From positions 9,093 to 73,092 of the forward strand of contig JAHEKP010000001.1 in the NCBI GenBank assembly GCA_024638285.1: a stretch of 64,000 nt of DNA, in the 5' to 3' direction. The notes beneath the pieces are model-generated. The model did not search any database, was not told where the DNA came from, and saw only the letters and a program-made list of their open reading frames with translations. Source of the stretch: Cryomorphaceae bacterium (lineage in GTDB: Bacteria > Bacteroidota > Bacteroidia > Flavobacteriales > Schleiferiaceae). This document shows, piece by piece, positions 7,693 to 44,483 of this stretch (position 1 is its first letter; each line of letters starts with the position of its first letter). The position numbers and the translations under genes were made by a program.

Positions 7693-8975
7693 CTACGTGC
7701 AATTCGTTCCCAAAGGGCACGGTCATTATGCTCTGGTTTCATAAGCACACTGCGTACTACAGTTATACTAGGGACATCCCATTCCATCTGCCATGGGCAG
7801 TTTTGCTGCGGCAGGCTGAACAGCGCGAGATGAATGTTTTCTTCTGCTTTTTGCTCAAAAAACGCTCGGTTTTTAGCACTTATTTCTGAAGCTTTCAAAC
7901 CAGGTAAACTGAATATGCAAATATCTAGTTGGGGTTCCAGTACCCACCATCCCTTGGCCATTAAAGTGTTTTTCAGTCCTTGGGCTGCTGCAAGGCTTGA
8001 ATTCAGCCGCTGTGCAAAGTTCCCGGAACGCACATATGGGAATTTTTGTTGTGTCGCCCAGAGTGCAGCAGCAGCAGCACCAGCTCGTGAACATTCAAGC
8101 GTGATTTCACCTAAGTGTAATTGGTCGGACGTAAAATACGTGTAGGGACTATCGTGTTTGTAAAAGCGTCCTTCTTCAGGATTTTTAAACAGCACTGCAC
8201 CGCAACCATAGGGCTGCAGACCGTGCTTATGCGGATCAATAACAATAGAATCGGCCTCGGCTATCGCGGTAAAATGCCGTTGCACGTCTTTTGGAAGGTT
8301 AGCCAGCGTAAAGTAGCCTCCGTAAGCTGCGTCAACGTGTATACGGGCGTCGTAGGCTCGTGCTAAGGGAATAATATCCTCAAGAGGATCTACTGCCCCC
8401 ATACCGGTCGTTCCAAGTGTTACAACGATGGTCGCTTTTACCCCTTGACTTTGGAGGTTCTCCAAAGCAACACTCAGCGCAGTACTATCCATCGATCCGT
8501 TTTCTGTCGATCTGATGGTTTGAAAAGGCATTCCCAGTACTTCACTCATCCTACTGTGCGTGTAATGCGCATGTTCATTCGCTAAAATGATGGTATTTGC
8601 ATTGGATTGACGTGCAACCCAGAGTGCTTCTAGGTTTGCAGTAGTTCCACCAGAGGTTAAATGTCCCAATGGTTTTGAAAAGCCTACCATCCTTCCAAAG
8701 GCGGCTATGGTCTCAAGTTCTAGGGCTGAGGTTGCACGTCCTCCATCAAGGGCATGATTGTTTGGATTGACAAAACTGGTCATCCAATGTGCAGCCTGTG
8801 CAAGCGGAAGCGGCGGCTTGATCATTTGACCGGCGTAATCTGGGCTATGGTATGGATAGTTGTCCTGAAGCTTATGAGCCAATTCTTTCAAGATGGCCTC
8901 ATCTGCAGCGTCTAAGGGTAATTGAGGGAATTCTAAATTCAATAAATGTGTCCAATCCATATTGGAAAAGTACAT
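7689..8975 (-). CDS. PLP-dependent group II decarboxylase family protein
   Basis: [22 protein letters not shown] and the PLP-lysine motif DPHKHG. I chose the ATG at 8975-8973, which overlaps the Cry-DASH stop as TAATG; the ATG at 8960 is an alternative. The track's 9092 start would overlap Cry-DASH by 118 nt. Confidence 0.8.
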
Positions 8976-10258
8976 TAATTCAACCAAGTATTTACATAGC
9001 TTTTGTCCGGATCGTAGCGTTCCAACTGCATTTTCGTATTGAATTTCCTGAACGGTCGGGGGTCGTTCCCGCGACCTGCGATATAAAGCCAATTCCCATA
9101 GTTTGAAGCAGGATCAAAGTCAATCAATTGACTTTCAAACCAAGCCGCGCCGCTGCGCCAATCCAATCCCATATCGTGAATGAGAAAGGAAGCTACGTTT
9201 TGACGGCCTCTGTTGCTCATAAAACCGGTAGCTAACAACTCTTTCATATTGGCATCCACTAATGGATCGCCAGTCTCACCATTTTTCCATTGATCGTACT
9301 TCCGCTTATTGAAGTGCGGCTTCCAGGGCTTTTCAGGTTGGAGTCCTGTTGGCATAAAAAGAAGTTTGCCAGCATTGTAAGCCGTCCATTGGAAAAATTC
9401 TCTCCAAAGTAATTCGATGAAGAGCCAGTACGTGCTGTCGTTACTGGTATGTCGTTCTTCGAATTGGTCCAATTCGTCCATTACCTGAGCTGCACTTATA
9501 CAACCGATGGCTAGGAAGGGTGAGAATTTTGAACTAAAAGATCGACCCAACATGCCGTTCCTAGTTTCTTTATAGACTTGAACCGCTTGTTCACCTTCCC
9601 AAAAATAGTCCTCGAGCGCACGCCAGGCCTCACGTACACCTCCTCGATATGGAAATGCAGTGCGGTCATCGGGCGCTGGAGTACTTACGTCCCATTCTCC
9701 TTGTAACTGACTAAAGCTACTGACATCTACAGGAGAGATTGCAGGCTCCTCCCAAGCTTTTCTTGGCGCCGCATACTTTTCTACTTTTCTTCGGAATGGA
9801 GAAAATACCTGAGGCATATTTTCTATGCTGAAAGGAAAATCATCCGGTTGGTACAATGTACGCTCTAGGAAAAATGTTACTTCTATACCTTCACTTTTAC
9901 CCCAAAGGTTCAGCTGCAATTGCTCATGCACTTCGTATGCTGATAATTCCTTTGGCGCATAAATAGCATCGGTCTCGAAAGTCGCTGCCAACTCTTGTAA
10001 TGTTGTCACGGGATCACCTTCTAGCAACAAAAGATCGCTACCGTACTCGCGTAATTTTACCCGTAAATCCATGGCTGCATCGTGCAAGAATTGTTCGCGC
10101 CAAGCACCGATGGTGGGGTTGCCCCAAGAATCGATTTGATCCGCAGTAGGAATAAAATACACGGGAATTACGGTTTCAAACGTGTTGTAAGCTTGAAGCA
10201 CGGGGAGGTTGTCACCTAGTCTTAGATTGTTACGAAACCAAAGAATGCAAGTACTCAT
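8975..10258 (-). CDS. Cryptochrome DASH (CPF family, ssDNA photolyase-like)
   Basis: Strong match to the Cry-DASH pattern: WFRNNLRLGDN, YKETRNGMLG..SSKFSPFLA.GCIS, NDSTYWL..ELLWREFF, PLVDANMKEL..TGFMSNRGRQNVASFL, WFES.LIDFD..SNYGNW. Confidence 0.9.
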   Translation of the reverse strand: MSTCILWFRNNLRLGDNLPVLQAYNTFETVIPVYFIPTADQIDSWGNPTIGAWREQFLHDAAMDLRVKLREYGSDLLLLEGDPVTTLQELAATFETDAIYAPKELSAYEVHEQLQLNLWGKSEGIEVTFFLERTLYQPDDFPFSIENMPQVFSPFRRKVEKYAAPRKAWEEPAISPVDVSSFSQLQGEWDVSTPAPDDRTAFPYRGGVREAWRALEDYFWEGEQAVQVYKETRNGMLGRSFSSKFSPFLAIGCISAAQVMDELDQFEERHTSNDSTYWLFIELLWREFFQWTAYNAGKLLFMPTGLQPEKPWKPHFNKRKYDQWKNGETGDPLVDANMKELLATGFMSNRGRQNVASFLIHDMGLDWRSGAAWFESQLIDFDPASNYGNWLYIAGRGNDPRPFRKFNTKMQLERYDPDKSYVNTWLN

Positions 10259-10259
10259 G

Positions 10260-11789
10260 TTATAATGCGTTGATGTTGTCTAATAGGGATTGGGCTTTTT
10301 CTCGAATTCCAGCTTTCACTGTGGCATTCATTTTATCGTAGGTGCGGTATACCATGCCTAGGCGAAAGTTCGATTGAAGTTTATCGCGCTGGCTATCGAA
10401 GAAATTCCAGTACAATGCGTTGAAAGGACAACTGTCGTCGTCTGTTTTAGTTTTCGGATTGTAGTGGCATTGGTCGCAGTAATCACCCATCTTCTTCATA
10501 TAATTTGCAGAAGAAACATAGGGTTTTGTGGCAATCCAGCCACCATCAGCATATTGACTCATGCCACGGGTATTCGTGATTTCAACCCATTCAAAAGCAT
10601 CGATGTAGATGCCGAGGTACCATAAATCTACTTCATCTGGATCAATTCCCGCTAAAAGCGCAAAATTTCCTGTTACCATGAGCCTTTGAATATGATGTGC
10701 ATAACCGTGGTCCAGGCTTTGCCTGATGGTATGGGATAGACATTTCATTTTTGTTTCCCCGTTCCAAAACCACTGCGGCAGTTTTCGGTCAAATTCAAAG
10801 AAATTTTCCGTTGCAAATTCGGGCATACGATGCCAATAGACACAACGCATAAACTCACGCCATCCTAGTATTTGCCGTATAAAACCTTCTACTGCATTTA
10901 AAGGAATCTCTGGATTCGTTCGGTAAAAGGATTCCACGCGATGACATACTTCTAGCGGCTGTATCATTTTAGTATTTAAAGCGAATGAAATCCGGCTGTG
11001 ATACAACGACCAGCTTTTTGTCGTAAGTGCATCCTGGTAATCTCCAAAAGAATGCAAGCCGTATTGTAGCCAATGGTCGAAAATTTCCCAGGCCTGCTCT
11101 GGTCTTGTGGGCCAATAAAAATGCTTGGGATCTTCTAACTTACCTATGGTTGGGAGTTTCGCTGCAATGGCATCTGCATACGCTTCACTCACATCCGTGC
11201 TGGGTACGAATGGAGGCGGAGGGAGATGGTCCTTTGGGAGTTTCTTTCTGTTTTGAGCGTCGTAGTTCCATTTACCGCCAACGGGCTGTGCTCCATCCAT
11301 TAAGAGACCAGTTCTTTTACGTAAGGCACGATAGAAGGTTTCCATTAAGAAGGTTTTTTTCCCTTTGAAAAGTTCCTGGAATTCAACATTCGAGCTTATG
11401 AAATGCTCGCTAGAAAACCAAGAAATCTCGAACCCTTTGCCATGCAGTTGTTCTAAATCTTTACGCAAACGCCATTCGTCGGGTTCTTGCAGTTCAATAT
11501 GTGTAATGCCGTTTTTTCGTGCTATCGATGTTAAAATACTACGCAAATTGGGTTCATTCCCTTCGAGGATGTTGTGATAGTGCACGTGGTGGCCCAATGA
11601 CTGTAATCTTTGAGCGAATTGACGCATTGCAGAAAGTATCCCAGTGACCTTTTGTATATGATGGGGAGCATAGCTGCCCTCTTCCCGCGATTCGATCATC
11701 ACATACGTGATTTGATCGCTCACAGTTGAAAACCAAGAATGTTGCGCATTGAGCTGATCGCCCAAAATAAGTCGGAGTGTGTTGCCCAT
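10260..11789 (-). CDS. FeS-BCP type cryptochrome/photolyase, (6-4) photolyase-like, PhrB/CryB class
   Basis: COG3046-like photolyase-related protein. Four Cys at residues 350, 438, 441 and 454 (KMKC...YCDQC...SCPF) fit the [4Fe-4S] ligand pattern of the FeS-BCP class. Its stop lies 1 nt from the Cry-DASH start. Confidence 0.85.
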   Translation of the reverse strand: MGNTLRLILGDQLNAQHSWFSTVSDQITYVMIESREEGSYAPHHIQKVTGILSAMRQFAQRLQSLGHHVHYHNILEGNEPNLRSILTSIARKNGITHIELQEPDEWRLRKDLEQLHGKGFEISWFSSEHFISSNVEFQELFKGKKTFLMETFYRALRKRTGLLMDGAQPVGGKWNYDAQNRKKLPKDHLPPPPFVPSTDVSEAYADAIAAKLPTIGKLEDPKHFYWPTRPEQAWEIFDHWLQYGLHSFGDYQDALTTKSWSLYHSRISFALNTKMIQPLEVCHRVESFYRTNPEIPLNAVEGFIRQILGWREFMRCVYWHRMPEFATENFFEFDRKLPQWFWNGETKMKCLSHTIRQSLDHGYAHHIQRLMVTGNFALLAGIDPDEVDLWYLGIYIDAFEWVEITNTRGMSQYADGGWIATKPYVSSANYMKKMGDYCDQCHYNPKTKTDDDSCPFNALYWNFFDSQRDKLQSNFRLGMVYRTYDKMNATVKAGIREKAQSLLDNINAL

Positions 11790-15662: not shown

Positions 15663-17182
15663 AACATTTACTTTTTCTTTGCTTTTTTGCAAGTACTACA
15701 TCGCTCAGTGCGCAATCGGTTACTGAACATGTGGTAGTTAAAGGGAATACACTGTATTCACTTTCAAAACAGTATGGAATTACAGTAGATGCGCTTCTTG
15801 AAGCGAACCCACAGATTGTAGGTACCACACTTTCTTTGAACGATGTTCTTATAGTACCATCGCCTGTTCCGCAGAATTCTTTGCCGGCAAACACGGAAGT
15901 TTTAAAAGCGGAATCTCAGGATTCAGTGCAGCCTAACCCGAGATTTGAAATCTATAAAGTGCGTCGTGGGGATACCCCTGAGACTTTAGCAAAAGAGTGG
16001 GGTTTTTCGGATATGGTTTCTTTTTACCGTATTAACCCAGATGCGCGCACGGATTGGAAACGCGGTTTACAATTGGTTAAACCCATGAATAAAGTTGCCC
16101 TAAGTAAAGCCACCAGTGATACGCTCGTGGTAAGCGCAGCGTTGCCTCAGGATACATTGGGTGAACAACCGGACAGCACTAAAACTGGTCTAAATATTTT
16201 AGGGGTTTTGCCTTTTTTTCATATCGATTATATTAATGAAACGGCATTGGCTAAGCGCAGTCCTGTAGCTATGAGTTTACGTATGGGTATGGAATTCGCA
16301 GCTCATTTGCATAGCGATAGTACTTTTAAGGTAAGGCTAGATTTCGTCGACTCGCACAACCATCAAGATTCATTGAAGAAAGCTATAGACTCCCTGAAAA
16401 TAGAGCAATATGACCTCTTGCTAGGACCGCTTTATTCTAAACGGGTACAGCAGATCGCCGATTATGGTGTTGCAGAAAAATCGGTCAATTTGATGAGCAA
16501 AAGTGCTGGGATCAATGATCTAGAAGTGTATAATGCTGTTGTGGCAGAAGAAGATTTTTATCGGTCTCTTCGCACCTTGATCAACGAACGCGGTGCGAAA
16601 GATGTTCGTCGTATTCCTTTGATAGTCACAAAGTTAAGAACAGCGGCTTGCGATTCATTTTTTGAAGGATTTACGAATCCAAATAAACAGTTAGTGACTA
16701 ATGGTTCAAAATGGGAGTCTAACGAATCCTTATCGAGACTGGTGACTAATGCTCATTATGAATTGGTCATTTATGATAATGACCCCGCGTTTATTCTAGA
16801 TGTACTCCGAAATTTACGAATGGGTAACGCTTCATATTCCCTGTATGCTACGGAATACCAGCTTTTTAATAGTGGAATCACTAACGATAATTTCATGCGA
16901 GAAGCTGAGGTGATCTGTGCGATGTCTTCCTATATGTCGTATCAGGATTCGAAAACACTTTTATTTGTAGAAGCCTTCAGAGCGTATTTTGGCGTTGAGC
17001 CTAACCTCTATGCCATACGAGGGTATGATATCGCGGATTATCATATTATTAGACAGCGCTACGGAGAAGTTCGGATGCGTGGAATTTACCTAGGATTTGA
17101 CCATAGTCAGGGCAAGCAAAACAAATGGGTTGAATTACGTCAGTTTGATAATTTTGAGTGGAGTATACTCCAGGAACTGTAG
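15653..17182 (+). CDS. LysM-domain protein with periplasmic-binding-protein-like C-terminal region
   Basis: Signal peptide. Two LysM repeats ([28 protein letters not shown]; [18 protein letters not shown]). The remainder resembles a type I periplasmic binding fold, which is a weak call. Confidence 0.65.
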
Positions 17183-17183
17183 C

Positions 17184-17212
17184 GAACAAAAACAGTTCTG
17201 CTTCGTTTTATA
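17184..17212 (+). promoter_or_regulatory. ECF-sigma-style promoter candidate upstream of bcp-crtZ-cyclase
   Basis: GAAC (17184-17187) - N16 - CGTTTTATA (17204-17212), 21 nt before the bcp ATG. Confidence 0.5.
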
Positions 17213-17232
17213 CACAACGAAAAGCCCTAATC

Positions 17233-17700
17233 ATGCCCAATAACCCCATAAGAGTAGGCGATGCATTGCCTGAATTTACCCTAGTAGATCAAAGCAATAC
17301 GCCCGTTAGTACCGCAGATTTTAAAGGTCAGCCGCTAGTTATTTTCTTTTATCCAAAAGACCATACGCCGGGTTGTACAGCACAAGCTTGTGATTTTAGA
17401 AATTACGAAAGTGAATTTCAGGCTGTTGGTGCTCAGGTAATAGGTATTAATGAAGCCTCTGTAGAATCGCACAAGGGATTTGCAGCTAAACACAACCTAA
17501 AGTATCCCATTCTCAGTGATCCGGGTCACAAGGTGAGAAAGTCCTTTGGCGCTCCTGGTCTGTTGTTCAACACTGTAGCGAACAGAATCACCTATGTAAC
17601 TGATGATAACCATCGGGTAGTTTATATCTTTAAAAGTCTTTTGCGTGCAACCGATCATGTGGAAGAAAGTTTGGCTTTTTTAAAATCAGTAGTAAAATGA
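17233..17700 (+). CDS. bcp: Thiol peroxidase / peroxiredoxin Bcp
   Basis: FFYPKDHTPGCTAQAC peroxidatic Cys motif, about 155 aa. I chose the ATG at 17233 (MPNNPIRVGD). The stop overlaps the crtZ start (ATGA at 17697-17700). Confidence 0.85.
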   Translation: MPNNPIRVGDALPEFTLVDQSNTPVSTADFKGQPLVIFFYPKDHTPGCTAQACDFRNYESEFQAVGAQVIGINEASVESHKGFAAKHNLKYPILSDPGHKVRKSFGAPGLLFNTVANRITYVTDDNHRVVYIFKSLLRATDHVEESLAFLKSVVK

Positions 17701-18164
17701 CAACCCTTGAATTTTTCTTGACGTTGCTGACCTTCTTTGTTATGGAGGGTGTGGCTTGGGCTGCACATAAGTACCTGATGCATGGATTCTTGTGGTTCTT
17801 ACATGATGACCATCACACCAAAACTCCGGGCGCACTGGAAAAGAATGATACGTTCTTTCTCATTTTCGCCATACCCTCATGGCTCTGCATCATGCTCGGT
17901 CTGATGTATGGCGCGGGTATTAGCGTTGCTATAGGTGCGGGTATAGCGCTTTATGGTTTTGCATATGCCATGGTCCACGAATTATTTATTCATCAACGCA
18001 TTCCGTTATTCAAACAGACAAAATCTACCTATCTTGAAGCCATACGTCTTGCCCACAAAATGCACCATAGGCACTTAGGTAAAGAACATGGGGAAAACTT
18101 TGGAATGCTGTGGGTCCATCCTAAATACATTAAACAAGTACGTGCTTTACGTGCTCAATCATAA
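17697..18164 (+). CDS. crtZ: Beta-carotene 3-hydroxylase
   Basis: Collinear with Pantoea-type CrtZ: AHKYLMHG, HDDHH, MVHELFIHQR, AHKMHHRH histidine boxes. Confidence 0.9.
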   Translation: MTTLEFFLTLLTFFVMEGVAWAAHKYLMHGFLWFLHDDHHTKTPGALEKNDTFFLIFAIPSWLCIMLGLMYGAGISVAIGAGIALYGFAYAMVHELFIHQRIPLFKQTKSTYLEAIRLAHKMHHRHLGKEHGENFGMLWVHPKYIKQVRALRAQS

Positions 18165-22478: not shown

Positions 22479-24116
22479 CTACCGGTCTTTTAGTTTCTTT
22501 AACTCTAGCTCCAGCTCCTCTAGTTTTCGTTCAATATTGTCCTCCATTTCTTCGAGATTATCTTCAATGTTTTCCTCTAACTCTTCAGCATTATAGTATT
22601 CAATAGTTGAACAATCGGAGCAGGATAAACCCTCTGGCGTCATTTTCCATAAGTGTCCTAGCATATCTCCATCGTATATATCTTGAACGTTCTGAATATC
22701 GTACATGATGTTTTCAATACTCTCATCTAAGTAGACCGTCGCACCTACAGGTAAACGAAGTGTGACTTTTAAATCTTGTCCTCGATATAAAGATTCTTTC
22801 GGCACGGTAAAGTATTCACTAAGTCGCAATTCTTCTCCTTCTTGCGCAGTAGGGTAGTCAAATGACTGGGCGCGTTGACGAGCTTCTGAATGGTTTCGAC
22901 CACTAGCAGCATGTTTTAATTCAAGACTCGCAGTGGAGGACCTGGTTGCCTCTATATTGAATCGGACATTTTCAATATGCAGTAATTCGTCTTCAACATC
23001 AAAGAGAAATCCTTGATCGTCTTCAAGAATATCGGCGGTGATATCAAAACTACTACCCGATAAAGTGATTTGATTGGTTTCTGTTGAGCGCTCTCTAAAG
23101 TCTGTCGCTAGCGAACCTGCGCTGAAGAATATGAGAATTAAACCAACGATGAAACTCGCGATACCCGAGAAAGAAAGTAGTTTAGAATTGGTCAATTCCC
23201 GTCCAAATATTTTAGCGAGAAAAACGACCAATGCAAACAAGGGCATTAATAGTGTGAGCAGCGTACCTACCCGTAATGCGAGCAAGCGCCATCCGCTGCC
23301 AAATATAGCTTGAGCTCCATCAAGACCGTAAATGTATCCGTTTAAATTGATAAAGTTGAACCCTTCTAAGTTCCATGTACTGCCAAAAATTCCAAGCAAT
23401 GCAACGATGAGTATAAATGCAATAAATGCGCCTATGATGGCCAGAAAGACACCGATAAATTTAAAAACGAAGGAAAATATAGATCCAATCCCGTTCACTA
23501 TAAAAGAAACAAAACTGTTAACTCCCGTTTTGATTTTCTCAGTGGAAGTATAATCTTCAACTTTTGTAAAAAGCTTTTCAATATTATTCAGATTGACTGC
23601 TTCACCGCGCATTTGAAGTTTTTGAGCGGTTGTTTTAGCCTCTGGAATGGCGGCCCAAAGAATCACATAGGTGATGAACCCGATACCGGTGAAAAAGAGT
23701 AGGATTAAAAACAGTACTCGAATCCAAACTGGATCGATGTCAAAATAGGCACCAATACCGCTACAAACACCACCAATAACTTTTTCATCCGGATTTCTAA
23801 AGAAACGTCTAGTGTCTTTGCTGCTGGTCTTTGGTTCTTCGTTGTCCGATTCATCAACGAATGCTTCTGGTTGACCTAAAGTCTCAATAATGAATTCAAC
23901 ATCAGATAGTCCCACGACTTGACTACCATTTTCTTTCATGCGAAGGTGGAAGATTTCGGCAATGCGCGCTTCTACATCCGCTATGATTTCTTCACCGCTT
24001 TCTTCCTTACCCAAAGCGGTTTTAACATGGTATAGGTAGGTTTTGAATTTATCATAAGCCACTTCATCGAGGTGGAAGATGATGCCTGCAAGGTTGATGT
24101 TTATTGTTTTATTCAT
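22479..24116 (-). CDS. PspC domain-containing membrane protein
   Basis: PspC domain (RFFRNPDEKVIGGVCSGIGAYFDIDPVWIRVLFLILLFF), several TM helices, acidic coiled C-terminus. Confidence 0.75.
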   Translation of the reverse strand: MNKTININLAGIIFHLDEVAYDKFKTYLYHVKTALGKEESGEEIIADVEARIAEIFHLRMKENGSQVVGLSDVEFIIETLGQPEAFVDESDNEEPKTSSKDTRRFFRNPDEKVIGGVCSGIGAYFDIDPVWIRVLFLILLFFTGIGFITYVILWAAIPEAKTTAQKLQMRGEAVNLNNIEKLFTKVEDYTSTEKIKTGVNSFVSFIVNGIGSIFSFVFKFIGVFLAIIGAFIAFILIVALLGIFGSTWNLEGFNFINLNGYIYGLDGAQAIFGSGWRLLALRVGTLLTLLMPLFALVVFLAKIFGRELTNSKLLSFSGIASFIVGLILIFFSAGSLATDFRERSTETNQITLSGSSFDITADILEDDQGFLFDVEDELLHIENVRFNIEATRSSTASLELKHAASGRNHSEARQRAQSFDYPTAQEGEELRLSEYFTVPKESLYRGQDLKVTLRLPVGATVYLDESIENIMYDIQNVQDIYDGDMLGHLWKMTPEGLSCSDCSTIEYYNAEELEENIEDNLEEMEDNIERKLEELELELKKLKDR

Positions 24117-24445
24117 GATGGGGTTGAAGTAAGTTGTTCAACGGCATTATTTAGGTTTTCCCAAGTATCTTTTAGTTCTAATTGGAACGCGCGTCCTTGC
24201 GCGCTAAGGCTGTAGTATTTTCGCGGGGGACCAGCGTTGCTTTCTTCCCAACGGTACTCTAACAAATCGGCATTTTTGAGTCTGGTCAATAAAGGATAGA
24301 GGGTCCCTTCTACAACGATGAGCTCAGCACTTTTTAACCGTGTAATAATGTCTGAAGCGTACGCATCACCCTTACTGAGTATACCTAGAATGCAATATTC
24401 TAAAACGCCTTTACGCATTTGTGCTTTTGTATTTTCAATCTTCAT
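24113..24445 (-). CDS. PadR family transcriptional regulator
   Basis: 110 aa winged-helix protein: GVLEYCILGILSKGDAYASDI...EGTLYPLLTRL. It overlaps both neighbours, which fits an operon. Confidence 0.85.
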   Translation of the reverse strand: MKIENTKAQMRKGVLEYCILGILSKGDAYASDIITRLKSAELIVVEGTLYPLLTRLKNADLLEYRWEESNAGPPRKYYSLSAQGRAFQLELKDTWENLNNAVEQLTSTPS

Positions 24446-24902
24446 CTAGGGTCTTAATCAAAGTGAAATCTCCGTAAACAGTAAGTAACATTGTACTTGA
24501 ATCTTCTCGAAGTAGAAAATGTGCTTCATCGAAGCGGGTTCTGCTCCCTCGAATGAAAAGGTAATGGTCTGGACCATCTGCATCTTCAATGGGAATTTTT
24601 TTATAGCGCGCCTTATGGAGGAATCGTTCCCATTCGCTGGTAACTTCTTTGATGTAGCGCTCATCTGTTATGCGCAGCCATTGGACGCGCTTAATCTCAC
24701 CGTTTAGGGTACGCTCAAAATCACCATTCGCAAAATCCAGGTCTAATGGGAGTGCACTAAGTAAGGATCCGCCAAAACTGAAGCCGGCGACATAAGGTTT
24801 AGGTTCATATTGCTCATAAAGTGCGTCGGCTAATCCTTTTGTTTGACCAAATGCTACCGTTGTACATGCAATAAGTACAAGGTGTAAAAGTTGTTTTTTC
24901 AT
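24435..24902 (-). CDS. Secreted hypothetical protein (possibly DUF4252)
   Basis: Signal peptide (LVLIACTTVAFGQ), 155 aa, first gene of the PadR/PspC operon. The family call is tentative. Confidence 0.45.
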   Translation of the reverse strand: MKKQLLHLVLIACTTVAFGQTKGLADALYEQYEPKPYVAGFSFGGSLLSALPLDLDFANGDFERTLNGEIKRVQWLRITDERYIKEVTSEWERFLHKARYKKIPIEDADGPDHYLFIRGSRTRFDEAHFLLREDSSTMLLTVYGDFTLIKTLDED

Positions 24903-24971
24903 GAATCAGTGTATTTGTGGTAAAGATATATGCTAAAATAGGTACTATGCAATACAAAGTACTATAAATTT

Positions 24972-25019
24972 CTTAATCTCGAAGAATCAATACGCCAATA
25001 GGTCAAAAATGAGATTAAG
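24972..25019. repeat. 9-bp perfect inverted repeat with 30-nt spacer in the PadR-operon / CarF-like divergent intergenic region
   Basis: CTTAATCTC (24972-24980) and GAGATTAAG (25011-25019). AATGAGATT recurs as a direct repeat at 25008-25016 and 25071-25079. GTACTAT recurs at 24942-24948 and 24959-24965. Confidence 0.6.
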
Positions 25020-25134
25020 TTGTAGCGCTGTAATAGACTAAGGCCAATGGCGCGCCTATGCATTTCGCTCAATGAGATTTTCATAGGAAAGCATTGCGTT
25101 TTGTAGTGTTTAGTTTTCCCAAAATCAATTCATT

Positions 25135-25683
25135 ATGGTACTACTACAGATTATTATTGAAATTCTTTTATTGTATTTATTGTTGGATTTTTTAACTGGA
25201 GTAGTCCATTGGTGGATGGACCGCTACGGTCGAGAAGATATGCCTATTGTAGGAAAGGCTATTATTGAGATTAATACCTGGCACCACGCGAATCCGCGCA
25301 AGATGATTACGAGAAGTTATTGGTACTTGTGTAAATCTGGATGGGCCGGTGTAGCGGTCATGCTACTCGCGGTTTACCTTATACAAGGAGTGGTAGGTTG
25401 GCAATGGTGGTTCATCGCGATTTTGGGTGCAAATGCAAATATAGTGCACCAATGGGCGCATAAGTTTCCAGAGGAAAAGCCTAAACTCATACATTGGCTA
25501 CAGCAAATCAAGGTGCTTCAACGTCCACAAGATCATGCAATGCACCATACTAAACCCGAAACGCGCTCGTATTGTACATACACGCCATGGCTTAATCCTA
25601 TTTTAGATCGAACGAGGTTCTGGTACGCAGTGGAACGAGTGCTTTTCTCGTTCAAAATATATACGACGGATCGAGTTCATTAA
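25135..25683 (+). CDS. CarF / PEDS1(TMEM189) / FAD4-family membrane lipid desaturase, minimal form
   Basis: Eight His arranged H25, H50-H51 (WHHANP), H105xxxH109 (HQWAH), H134xxH137H138 (HAMHH), on a background of 3-4 TM helices. This is the His pattern I recall for the family. Confidence 0.7.
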   Translation: MVLLQIIIEILLLYLLLDFLTGVVHWWMDRYGREDMPIVGKAIIEINTWHHANPRKMITRSYWYLCKSGWAGVAVMLLAVYLIQGVVGWQWWFIAILGANANIVHQWAHKFPEEKPKLIHWLQQIKVLQRPQDHAMHHTKPETRSYCTYTPWLNPILDRTRFWYAVERVLFSFKIYTTDRVH

Positions 25684-25688
25684 GCGAA

Positions 25689-26492
25689 TTAAATGATTTC
25701 CTTTCTAGCACGTATTGCATAGACGAGCGGAAAGAAGCCTTCCTTTCCTTTAATTTGGTATTGACCAGGGGCTTTTTCAGTGTGTTCGAATAGGGCGTAA
25801 GGACTCCAATCACTTTCGCCGAAGAAGGTCAAGGAACGCTCTGGATGATCTACGATAGGTAAGATGAGGTCACTGATACTGTGGTTCCAAGTATAATTAA
25901 CCATTTGATCGGCTTCTGGGGCTGCGTAACTACCCGCACGATCTTCAATAATCACTCCTGTATTGAAGTAAGGATATTTAATCTCTTTAAATTCTTCATC
26001 TAGTATCCACAATACTGGGTGAAAGTCTACTAAAATTAATGAGCCGCCCGGTTTGAGGTAATGAAACGCTGCGTCCATCCATTCCTTCGCTGAAGGGTGC
26101 CAACCCACTACACCGTACGAAGCATAAACAACATCAAATGAGTTTTTTAAATGGGGTAGTGTCTGGAGCACATCAGATTCTATAAAAGAAACTTTGGTGC
26201 CGCACGCGGAATTCAATTTTTTCGCTTGGCGTATGGCTTCTGGGCTAAAATCAAGACCTACAACTTGAGTTGCACCTAAGGTTGCTAGACTGATTGTATC
26301 CTGTCCAAAGTGACATTGCAAGTGCAATACACTTTTGCCTTTCAAATTGGGCAATACATTGCGTTCAATAGCGTGGAGGGATTGTTGGTGCTTTATGAAC
26401 GCTGCGTTATCGTAAAATGAAGATTGCGGATGTAAACTCGCCCAATGGTTCCAAAGTGCGCGATTCTGCTCAAGGTATAAATGGTCTTCCAT
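25689..26492 (-). CDS. Class I SAM-dependent methyltransferase
   Basis: VLHLQCHFGQDTISLA...VVGLDFS motif I / post-I region, LKPGGSLIL motif. Confidence 0.7.
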   Translation of the reverse strand: MEDHLYLEQNRALWNHWASLHPQSSFYDNAAFIKHQQSLHAIERNVLPNLKGKSVLHLQCHFGQDTISLATLGATQVVGLDFSPEAIRQAKKLNSACGTKVSFIESDVLQTLPHLKNSFDVVYASYGVVGWHPSAKEWMDAAFHYLKPGGSLILVDFHPVLWILDEEFKEIKYPYFNTGVIIEDRAGSYAAPEADQMVNYTWNHSISDLILPIVDHPERSLTFFGESDWSPYALFEHTEKAPGQYQIKGKEGFFPLVYAIRARKEII

Positions 26493-42333: not shown

Positions 42334-43023
42334 ATGGAAAAGCAGCGAATCTTATTAGTTGAGGATGATGTGAATTTTGGCAATATGCTTAAAGACACAC
42401 TGGATTTTAATGACTACGAGGTGACGCTCGAACGCGATGGTGTTCAGGGCTTACGCGCATACAAACAAGGCACTTATGAATTGTGCATTTTTGATATCAT
42501 GATGCCGAAGAAAGATGGCTTGACTTTAGCCACCGAGGTAAAGGAGATTGATAATGGACAGCCACTGATTTTTCTAACCGCCAAAGGGCAAAAGGAAGAC
42601 ATCATTGCAGGGTACAGCGCTGGAGCTGATGATTATTTGGTAAAGCCTTTTGATACAGATGTTTTACTCTATAAGATTCAGGCAATCATTGGTCGTAAAG
42701 CAGCTGAAATGGACGAAGAGCCTGATACGTTGAACATAGGGAGCTTTATTTTAGAGCCGAAAATTCGTCAGTTAAGTCGCGAGGATGAATTGGTTCGATT
42801 GAGTCCTAAAGAAAGTGACCTTTTAAAAATGCTTATTCAACATAAGAACCAACTGATGCCAAGAAGCAAAGCACTTTTAAAGATTTGGCGCGAGGATAAC
42901 TACTTTACGGGACGTTCTATGGATGTTTATGTCGCTAAACTCCGTAAATATTTAAAGGTAGATGAGCGTATTCGGATAGAGAACGTTCATGGTGAAGGGT
43001 TCAGATTGGTCGAGGAAGCTTAA
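42334..43023 (+). CDS. OmpR-family response regulator
   Basis: Receiver domain (ILLVEDD...IFDIMMPKKDG...LTAKG) plus a winged-helix trans_reg_C (VYVAKLRKYL...IENVHGEGFRL). Confidence 0.9.
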   Translation: MEKQRILLVEDDVNFGNMLKDTLDFNDYEVTLERDGVQGLRAYKQGTYELCIFDIMMPKKDGLTLATEVKEIDNGQPLIFLTAKGQKEDIIAGYSAGADDYLVKPFDTDVLLYKIQAIIGRKAAEMDEEPDTLNIGSFILEPKIRQLSREDELVRLSPKESDLLKMLIQHKNQLMPRSKALLKIWREDNYFTGRSMDVYVAKLRKYLKVDERIRIENVHGEGFRLVEEA

Positions 43024-44483
43024 GATTTCCTTTTGCTGGGATTCACCAGTTTTTCTAGGATGTGTTTCGCCTCTTCCCTAGAAGCTTTTGTCTTTTTAAT
43101 GCTATAGAGTTGGTCGCTTGCATGTTTTCTTGCACGGGTAAGATCGACAATAGGGGTCTTTGGATAGCTCCCTGTATCCCATTGTTCCATTTCCCACATC
43201 ATCGGTGGAATGGCCCAGGGTTCATGCAAATGTGGTAAAGGCAAGTCCTTTAGTTCGGGCAGCCATTGCTTAATGAATTCACCCTTTGCGTCTTGGTCAT
43301 AGCTTTGCTTGATAGGGTTGTAAATACGGATGGTATTTACACCGGTGTAGCCGCTTTGCATTTGAAACTGCGTATAGTGAATGCCAGGTTCAAAATCTGT
43401 AAAGGTGCTGGCTAGGTAACGTGCACCAGCTTCCCATGGCAACCAGAGGTATTGACTGTAGAAGCTTACCACCATGGCGCGCATCCTAAAATTAAGATAG
43501 CCTGTTGCGGCTACACAACGCATACACGCATCGACTAAAGGAACACCTGTAGTGCCGTTTTTCCAAGCCTTAAATTTATCCTCATCCCAAATCTTTGATG
43601 CATCTATAGCAGCGTAAGCCCTATTTATAGGGTGGAATTCGTAGCTACAGACGCTTTCAAATTTCTGTATAAAATGTGCTTGCCAACGCAATCGATCGAC
43701 AAATGCGCGTTGGTTTCGCTTACTGCCCGCTAGCTCTACGACCTCTGCCATATGCCATATTTGACGAATACTGAGGTTCCCCCAGGCCAGATGCGGAGAA
43801 ATGCGACTGCATCCTTTTCGACTGGCTAATGGTTTTGAGATACTTTGGGCATAGCCTTTAATTCGCTCTGTAAGGAAGGAATATAGGACCCGCTCAGCGC
43901 GAGATGCGCCTCCCTTTTGAAAGTACGGATGGGGTTCATAGCTATGACTGTGTTGCCAAGATTCAAAGGGATTAGTAAGAGCTTGTTTGCATACGGCATC
44001 TAAATCAGTACGCAGTGGTGCAATATCTACATAGTCGTACCAATCTTTAAGCCAGTTTTTACGGTGTTTAAGCCCTCTTTTAACGCCACCGTAATCCCAT
44101 TCATTCCAGGAAATATCGTTGGAATCTAATAGATGCTTAACGGCCTTATCTCGCTTAAAAGTTTTATCGATCCCCGTTTCTCGGTGACTGTAAACGGCCT
44201 TTACAGTGTAGTTAGCTAGACAATGCTTAAAAAAATCCACTGCCTCCACGTTTAAAAAGTAAACGACTTCTTTACCAGCAACTTCATTCAGGTCTTTAAT
44301 AGAATCCCAAATAAATCGTTCATGCCGCGGGTCGTATGGTTTTTCGCTCCATAGCAATGGTTCATAGAGTGCTACAAAAAAAACCGATTCTCCAGCAGCT
44401 AAAGCGCTTCGAATGGGGGCATGGTCGTGCCATCTAAAATCGCGTTTAAACCAAACAATATGAATGGATTGCTTAGCCGTCAC
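43020..44483 (-). CDS. Divergent cryptochrome/photolyase family (CPF) protein, class not assignable by eye
   Basis: N-terminal photolyase alpha/beta fold (IVWFKRDFRWHDHAP) and a C-terminal FAD-binding domain (GVPLVDACMR...GYLNFRMRAMVVSF...IRIYNPIKQSYDQD...WLPEL). It has atypical RLRWQAHFIQKFE and TDFEPGIHYTQFQMQSG segments. Confidence 0.8.
   Translation of the reverse strand: MTAKQSIHIVWFKRDFRWHDHAPIRSALAAGESVFFVALYEPLLWSEKPYDPRHERFIWDSIKDLNEVAGKEVVYFLNVEAVDFFKHCLANYTVKAVYSHRETGIDKTFKRDKAVKHLLDSNDISWNEWDYGGVKRGLKHRKNWLKDWYDYVDIAPLRTDLDAVCKQALTNPFESWQHSHSYEPHPYFQKGGASRAERVLYSFLTERIKGYAQSISKPLASRKGCSRISPHLAWGNLSIRQIWHMAEVVELAGSKRNQRAFVDRLRWQAHFIQKFESVCSYEFHPINRAYAAIDASKIWDEDKFKAWKNGTTGVPLVDACMRCVAATGYLNFRMRAMVVSFYSQYLWLPWEAGARYLASTFTDFEPGIHYTQFQMQSGYTGVNTIRIYNPIKQSYDQDAKGEFIKQWLPELKDLPLPHLHEPWAIPPMMWEMEQWDTGSYPKTPIVDLTRARKHASDQLYSIKKTKASREEAKHILEKLVNPSKRKS

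Follow-up and report, generated by a model that had tools for sequence, protein, structure and literature searches.

The membrane enzymes of the CarF/PEDS1/FAD4 family are known for two reactions: formation of the vinyl ether of plasmalogens, carried out by the plasmanylethanolamine delta-1'-desaturase called CarF in Myxococcus xanthus and PEDS1 (TMEM189) in animals, and introduction of the trans-delta-3 double bond of chloroplast phosphatidylglycerol, carried out by FAD4, the plant and algal 16:1 delta-3-trans desaturase that acts at the sn-2 position. Here we ask what a short member of this family does in a bacterium of the Schleiferiaceae (Cryomorphaceae bacterium, contig JAHEKP010000001.1), where its gene, at 25135..25683 on the plus strand of the 64,000-nucleotide stretch that we analysed (the window), lies among photolyase and carotenoid genes. 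A sequence-only reading had offered two answers, that the protein is the sensor-side lipid component of a light pathway run by an extracytoplasmic function (ECF) sigma factor, or that it is an unrelated lipid-modifying enzyme. The second fits our data best, and on balance we favour an O2-dependent, FAD4-like, stand-alone accessory enzyme that modifies an intact membrane lipid and belongs to a short-form clade that we term N-type.

The gene is an ATG-started open reading frame of 182 codons, and its orthologues encode 180-185 residues from the same start position. The source genome (a 1.7-Mb assembly in 85 contigs, 91% complete) holds one copy only. Against the two closest orthologues the ratio of nonsynonymous to synonymous substitution (dN/dS) is 0.064-0.067 at a dS of about 1, a sign of purifying selection, and the gene is therefore real and functional. 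The family assignment made from the letters was borne out, as the match to PF10520 (Lipid_desat) reaches 125.5 bits (E 3e-36, residues 14-172, profile positions 1-166 of 175), far above chance and above the gathering cut-off of 26.4 bits. Histidines occur at positions 25, 50, 51, 105, 109, 120, 134, 137, 138 and 182, and the predicted pattern H25, H50-H51, H105xxxH109, H134xxH137-H138 proved exact; these eight family histidines (H25, H50, H51, H105, H109, H134, H137 and H138) show little or no variation across alignments of 155 and of 12 members. Asp29, the counterpart of mouse PEDS1 D100, is kept in 153 of the 155 aligned members.

The polytopic membrane scaffold that had been proposed is also what the structural predictions give. 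AlphaFold2, run on a 32-sequence alignment, returned a confident model (predicted local distance difference test, pLDDT, 94.6; predicted template modelling score, pTM, 0.88) with helices at residues 2-31, 39-52, 54-59, 62-84, 89-107, 117-124, 131-138, 153-159 and 162-172, of which 2-31, 62-84 and 89-107 are the long ones, and hydropathy marks hydrophobic segments at about 1-28 and 65-91. Combining the two, we predict three transmembrane helices at about 1-24, 62-84 and 88-104; in the same combination the conserved histidines are all placed at helix ends or within two soluble segments on the same side of the membrane. A sequence search of the PDB with the 182-residue protein found no match, and Foldseek with the AlphaFold2 model found no significant one (best E 2.2), SCD1 and Scs7 not being recovered either. 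From the open reading frame, the Pfam and NCBIfam profiles, the alignment, the model and the tree described below, we annotate 25135..25683 (+) as the coding sequence of a short N-type PF10520 membrane di-iron enzyme of 182 residues.

Within the family the protein falls in a large short-form prokaryotic clade, apart from CarF/PEDS1 and from plant and algal FAD4. Position 47, three residues before the HH motif, is Asn, its counterpart in mouse PEDS1 being F118, and we coined the name N-type for proteins with Asn in place of Phe at this site, those with Phe being F-type. HMMER, run exhaustively against 1.84 billion representative proteins (E <= 1e-3), gave 1663 family clusters at 50% identity. 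Among the best 150 of these 1663, Asn occupies position 47 in 103, which have a median length of 188 residues and lack an N-terminal extension, and Phe occupies it in 41, which have a median length of 237 residues and an extension of about 52; a ninth histidine is also present in 29 of the 41 Phe-type clusters. The position of this PEDS1-specific histidine (CarF H113, mouse H131) is taken in the window protein by Arg60 in the ungapped alignment and by Ser61 in an alternative gapped one, with no histidine either way, whereas named CarF proteins have His there and Phe before HH (RPFREHH). The NCBIfam equivalog profile for CarF, NF045946, gives 83.8 bits, below its cut-off of 500. Finally, in an IQ-TREE phylogeny (LG+C20+F+G4, 83 sequences, 188 columns) a single branch with a Shimodaira-Hasegawa-like approximate likelihood ratio (SH-aLRT) support of 99 divides the N-type proteins, the window protein included, from the F-type. 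The F side contains six proteins to which their sources give the name CarF or plasmanylethanolamine desaturase, together with a cluster containing the green alga Prasinococcus, and it is this FAD4-like cluster, not an authentic plant FAD4, that represents FAD4 in the tree.

The nearest relatives outside the genus, at 41-44% identity by phmmer, come from Saprospiraceae, Verrucomicrobiota and Candidatus Poseidoniaceae (Marine Group II archaea); all share the short architecture and an invariant Asn47, and the clade also includes proteins of soil bacteria. Position 60 is variable across the N-type clade (R, N, S, G, K or H). One family member, P0041 (682 residues), carries its Lipid_desat domain at 515-678 behind some 500 other residues; this fusion might point to a partner or a substrate. 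In Fig. 4 of a survey of GTDB for PEDS1 homologues, published in 2026 (PMC13012113), "a fully bacterial clade" is shown collapsed and goes undiscussed, and this is probably the N-type clade. In the databases the relatives appear as "fatty acid desaturase CarF family protein" (NCBI) or as "plasmanylethanolamine desaturase" or "ubiquitin-conjugating enzyme E2 variant" (JGI), the last stemming from the human Kua-UEV fusion; the two JGI labels are unjustified for these proteins and serve as a warning to annotators.

A plasmalogen desaturase needs an alkyl-ether substrate, the enzymes of its supply being alkyl-dihydroxyacetonephosphate synthase (AGPS), with FAR and GNPAT, or ElbD, and here the search for genes of alkyl-ether lipid biosynthesis lent the sensor proposal no support. 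No PF02913 (FAD-oxidase_C) domain was found in the 91%-complete source assembly; a PF02913 protein occurs in 30 of 41 genomes of the genus, in most as an open frame of about 940 residues, and its absence from the source assembly is probably due to the missing 9%. The one sister copy examined (L158, 1666-4488) encodes a 940-residue fusion of FAD_binding_4, FAD-oxidase_C, 4Fe-4S and CCG domains, which by its architecture looks like a fused FAD/Fe-S dehydrogenase and not like AGPS. Matches to PF07993 are generic, the family being found in all 14 control genomes.

The gene is moreover a dispensable accessory gene in this Schleiferiaceae genus. PF10520 was found in 26 of 37 genomes of the genus, in none of 24 genomes from 17 other families of the same order and in one of 400 other Bacteroidota genomes sampled, a patchy, transfer-like distribution. 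The locus itself is collinear across the genus: Bcp, CrtZ-like, lycopene cyclase, TerC, a hypothetical gene (-), CrtD-like and CruF-like genes come first, then three variable modules, namely a cassette of PspC, PadR and DUF4252-like genes (-), the CarF-like gene (+) and a methyltransferase (-), and then CarboxypepD_reg-like, EttA-like ABC-F and acyl-CoA dehydrogenase genes. The stretch from the CruF-like to the CarboxypepD_reg-like gene (22479-26492 in the window; compared in L004, L026, L030, L036 and L153-L156) is thus a variable hot spot, in which the presence of each of the three modules is independent of the other two, the PadR cassette being missing from L026 and L030 and the methyltransferase from L004, L030 and L036. 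Genomes G025 and G032 (each 90% complete or better) still have the cassette and the methyltransferase, with about 185-200 bp in place of the CarF-like gene, a clean absence between hyp155 and the methyltransferase, and in G004 (86% complete) all three modules are absent and the flanking genes kept. All three genomes retain the carotenoid genes CrtD and CruF. The absence of the gene where the light regulon is retained argues against an essential role in that regulon.

Based on these data we propose that the N-type protein would be a catalytically competent, domain-only PF10520 membrane di-iron oxygenase with three transmembrane helices, in which the eight histidines and Asp29 would bind two iron ions on the cytoplasmic side, and that, with O2 and electrons from an external donor, it would take two hydrogens off a lipid chain (or hydroxylate it). 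The target is most likely, as for FAD4, the headgroup-proximal part of a chain in an intact membrane glycerolipid. Formation of a vinyl ether is disfavoured because both the residues needed for it and the substrate pathway are lacking. The gene would be transcribed from its own promoter, and the protein would not act as a sensor of the light or carotenoid regulon.

Several points weigh against this proposal. Our literature search found no reported function for any member of the N-type clade, and for this reason the substrate and reaction proposed here are extrapolations from two enzymes that are only distantly related. The Verrucomicrobiota protein P0032, N-type by its Asn, has His at the PEDS1 position, and because members like it carry this histidine the residue argument is limited to the window protein and does not extend to the whole clade. 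The source assembly is only 91% complete, and although no AGPS-type gene was found in it or in the one sister copy of the PF02913 protein, that search did not specifically exclude an ElbD-type route. A weak similarity to the FA_hydroxylase family speaks for hydroxylation as a less likely outcome, and the gene neighbourhoods in Marine Group II and in the Schleiferiaceae, described below, might reflect a stronger link with light stress or carotenoids than we assume.

The first of these chemical questions leads to the alternative that survives best, though we still judge it unlikely: the same di-iron site may act as a lipid hydroxylase by hydroxyl rebound, for instance on an amino-lipid or sphingolipid-type lipid of Bacteroidota. 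The protein matches PF04116 (FA_hydroxylase) over residues 11-154 with an E of 6.7e-6, and Asn for Phe next to the metal site could change the outcome of the reaction. Yet the PF04116 score of 27 bits lies under the cut-off of 31, set against 125.5 bits for PF10520, and both characterised PF10520 enzymes are desaturases (PMC9131029, PMC12456178), so that desaturation is the reaction we would expect first.

The neighbourhoods of homologues in other lineages bear on the next alternative. In Marine Group II (Poseidoniaceae) seven contigs (L115, L129, L130 and L138-L141; for example L138, 6229-16152) carry a PF10520 gene in the order crtB and crtI (-), the PF10520 gene (+), an ABC1 kinase, TrmB, an AhpC/TSA peroxiredoxin and GTP cyclohydrolase II (-), followed by a photolyase-like gene, DUF1722/YbgA and an epimerase with DUF1731. 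In Verrucomicrobiota (L135, 5724-8605; L136, L137) the PF10520 gene is immediately preceded by three thioredoxin-like paralogues (Thioredoxin_7/DsbH-like) that share its strand, an operon-like arrangement. Among the soil metagenome loci (L106-L131) a LysR-type regulator of about 300 residues adjoins the gene in 13, upstream on the same strand or divergently; a marine lineage at 54% identity has Crp-like regulators and DJ-1/PfpI proteins as neighbours; and the Saprospiraceae-like loci and genome G383 show unrelated housekeeping or catabolic genes. No obligate partner gene was found, the neighbours differing in eight lineages and the methyltransferase and the PadR/PspC cassette varying independently of the CarF-like gene, and with no conserved partner the enzyme appears to work by itself, on some common substrate. 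That carotenoid, photolyase and Bcp/PrxQ peroxiredoxin genes lie near the homologue in two unrelated surface-ocean lineages, the Schleiferiaceae genus and Marine Group II, is suggestive but unproven, the recurrence concerning 2 of about 8 lineages and having been noticed post hoc.

In the window itself, as the sequence-only reading had stated, photolyase and carotenoid genes are plentiful: three photolyase-family genes (8975-10258, 10260-11789 and 43020-44483) and CrtZ-like, lycopene cyclase, CrtD-like and CruF-like genes. The protein could be a di-iron enzyme that modifies carotenoids, by hydroxylation, ketolation or desaturation, in the adjacent monocyclic xanthophyll pathway, for which the histidine-box membrane enzymes CrtZ and CrtW would be precedents; we regard this as quite improbable. 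It would agree with the order in L026 and L030, where, with the PadR/PspC cassette missing, the gene comes after the CrtD-like and CruF-like genes in the same orientation, with the Marine Group II homologue adjoining crtI-crtB divergently, and with the weak similarity to PF04116, presumably the Pfam family in which CrtZ belongs. However, because the gene sits in a variable hot spot, with three independent modules, the inference from adjacency to carotenoid genes is weakened and its position may be a coincidence; CrtD and CruF persist without it in G025, G032 and G004; and the homologues of G383, the L095 lineage and the Saprospiraceae-like, Verrucomicrobiota and soil loci have no carotenoid genes nearby. 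Both characterised family members act on glycerolipids, and a CrtZ-type gene is already present at 17697-18164. The product of this last open reading frame (155 residues) has no Pfam match even at E 0.1; the frame overlaps the stop codon of Bcp and precedes the lycopene cyclase gene. Its motifs HKxxMH, HDDHH, HELFIH and HKMHH are, we assume, those of a CrtZ-type beta-carotene hydroxylase. A genome-wide PF04116 search of the source assembly matched the CarF-like gene and no other, but the idea that CrtZ is missing here and replaced by the CarF-like protein was rejected on the strength of these CrtZ-type histidine motifs.

The region upstream of the gene, aligned over 21 orthologous loci, is of interest for its control. 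The box TAGTTTTC (25111..25118, +), 17 nt before the ATG, is a candidate sigma-A -7 element: the Bacteroidota consensus is TAnnTTTG, a TAnnTTT(G/C) box occurs at the same place, about 17-25 nt before the ATG, in many orthologous loci, and we take it as a putative promoter element. A second element, CGTTTTGTAG (25097..25106, +), had been noted earlier as -10-like, with the remark that the full ECF-type motif is absent; this was correct, since upstream of the gene there is no match to AAC-N15-18-CGT and no AAC 15-18 nt before CGTTTTGTAG. Moreover, CGTTTTGTAG recurs only in the closest relatives (L013 and L014), other orthologues having unrelated sequence there. A TGAGA motif (25073..25077, +) about 60 nt before the ATG is kept in most orthologous upstream regions of the genus and is a candidate regulator site or promoter element.

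Further upstream, a 9-bp inverted repeat, CTTAATCTC and GAGATTAAG separated by 30 nt, spans 24972..25019 (no strand assigned), and orthologues have at this position a short TCTCG-N-CGAGA hairpin, which belongs to the CarF-like side of the intergenic region because it is kept in L026 and L030, where the PadR cassette is missing. The sequence GGTACTATGCAATACAAAGTAC (24941-24962), almost invariant across the genus and close to the divergent DUF4252-like/PadR/PspC operon, is lost together with the cassette in the same two loci and is for that reason assigned to that operon, likely as a PadR operator or promoter. Downstream, a pattern match marks a terminator-like stem-loop, GGAAAGAAGCCTTCCTTTCC followed by TTTAATTT (25729..25748, +), 46 nt past the stop codon and within the 3' end of the convergent methyltransferase gene. 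An Rfam search of 24700-25900 found no match. Elsewhere in the window, (A/G)AAC-N16-17-CGT(T/C)T motifs on the minus strand at 11822-11799, 30365-30341 and 45880-45856 precede an FeS-BCP photolyase operon, a DUF2256 gene and an operon of short-chain dehydrogenase (SDR), flavin-reductase and cryptochrome/photolyase-family (CPF) genes, and not the gene studied here; these three would fit an ECF-type light regulon, the bare pattern being common in the window.

That the protein is a true CarF-like plasmanylethanolamine desaturase, whose plasmalogen would sense singlet oxygen and free an ECF sigma factor to turn on the photolyase and carotenoid genes, is highly improbable, for although it shares the Pfam family and the eight histidines and Asp, lies in a window with such genes and with ECF-like motifs (AAC-N16-17-CGT) before three operons, and has a distant homologue (contig L050) with an ECF sigma gene immediately downstream, it carries Arg60 for the ninth histidine and Asn47 for Phe118 (PMC9131029, PMC8960569), falls short of NF045946 and lies beyond the SH-aLRT 99 branch, no AGPS-type gene was found, its gene is absent at intact syntenic sites of genomes that keep the crt genes, and before the gene there is no ECF-like promoter but only the unconserved CGTTTTGTAG.

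A comparison with CarF and PEDS1 places the N-type enzyme that we favour more precisely. With them it has in common PF10520, the spacing of H, 24 residues, HH, then HxxxH, then HxxHH, corresponding in mouse PEDS1 to H96, H121, H122, H187, H191, H215, H218 and H219 (PMC8960569), and the Asp four residues past the first histidine, which as Asp100 is essential in mouse PEDS1, where a Phe118 mutant keeps 6% of the activity (PMC8960569). Identity is about 28-31% to named CarF orthologues of cultured myxobacteria and 36% to a protein named CarF in a metagenome-assembled genome of Myxococcales. In contrast to CarF and PEDS1, the ninth histidine and Phe118 are gone. CarF and PEDS1 both need the ninth histidine (PMC9131029, PMC8960569), which is present in CarF, PEDS1 and Leptospira, usually Arg in plants and missing in Alphaproteobacteria, and carF was complemented neither by plant FAD4s nor by an alphaproteobacterial (Bradyrhizobium) homologue without this histidine (PMC9131029, PMC8960569, PMC8156234). 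The remark that the protein is shorter than characterised versions was right as well: named myxobacterial CarF proteins have 269-288 residues (284-288 in Myxococcus, Corallococcus, Cystobacter and Archangium), and CarF is longer by about 60 residues at the N-terminus, which include an additional hydrophobic transmembrane helix, and by a C-terminal tail of about 50, both lacking in the window protein, which is predicted to have three transmembrane helices as against four in CarF. Unlike CarF, it scores below the equivalog threshold, lies on the opposite side of the well-supported branch, is encoded in a host in which no AGPS-type gene was found and is the product of an accessory gene. In all, the protein departs from CarF/PEDS1 in five tested features.

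From FAD4 it departs in two tested features. F118, one of the residues that PEDS1 and FAD4 have strictly in common (PMC8960569), is Asn47 in the window protein, and the algal FAD4-like cluster lies across the SH-aLRT 99 split from it. It also lacks the N-terminal targeting/anchor region of FAD4. Shared with FAD4 are the family and the eight histidines, and Arg60 at the PEDS1-specific position is as usual in plants (PMC9131029). FAD4 needs PRXQ (Horn 2020, as cited in PMC12456178), and a PrxQ/Bcp-type peroxiredoxin gene lies in the neighbourhood both here (17158-17700) and in the Marine Group II loci, the AhpC/TSA gene being 7.4 kb upstream here and about 2.7 kb away there, a matter of proximity only.

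It is a tempting, if doubtful, extension that N-type proteins are widespread prokaryotic lipid desaturases assisted by thiol redox partners, a counterpart and possibly the ancestor of the chloroplast FAD4-PRXQ pair, which in surface-ocean photoheterotrophs lie within photo-oxidative stress islands and would remodel or mark lipids under light-generated oxidants. Were this so, the family would be firmly present in Archaea, from which specialist reviews hold it to be absent. Next to the plasmalogen and chloroplast enzymes, the N-type proteins form a third and much larger prokaryotic branch, distinguished by the substitution adjoining the metal site and by having one transmembrane helix less; to identify what it acts on would give the family a third reaction or substrate and would also tell whether abundant marine heterotrophs, Marine Group II included, modify their membranes under light or oxidative stress.

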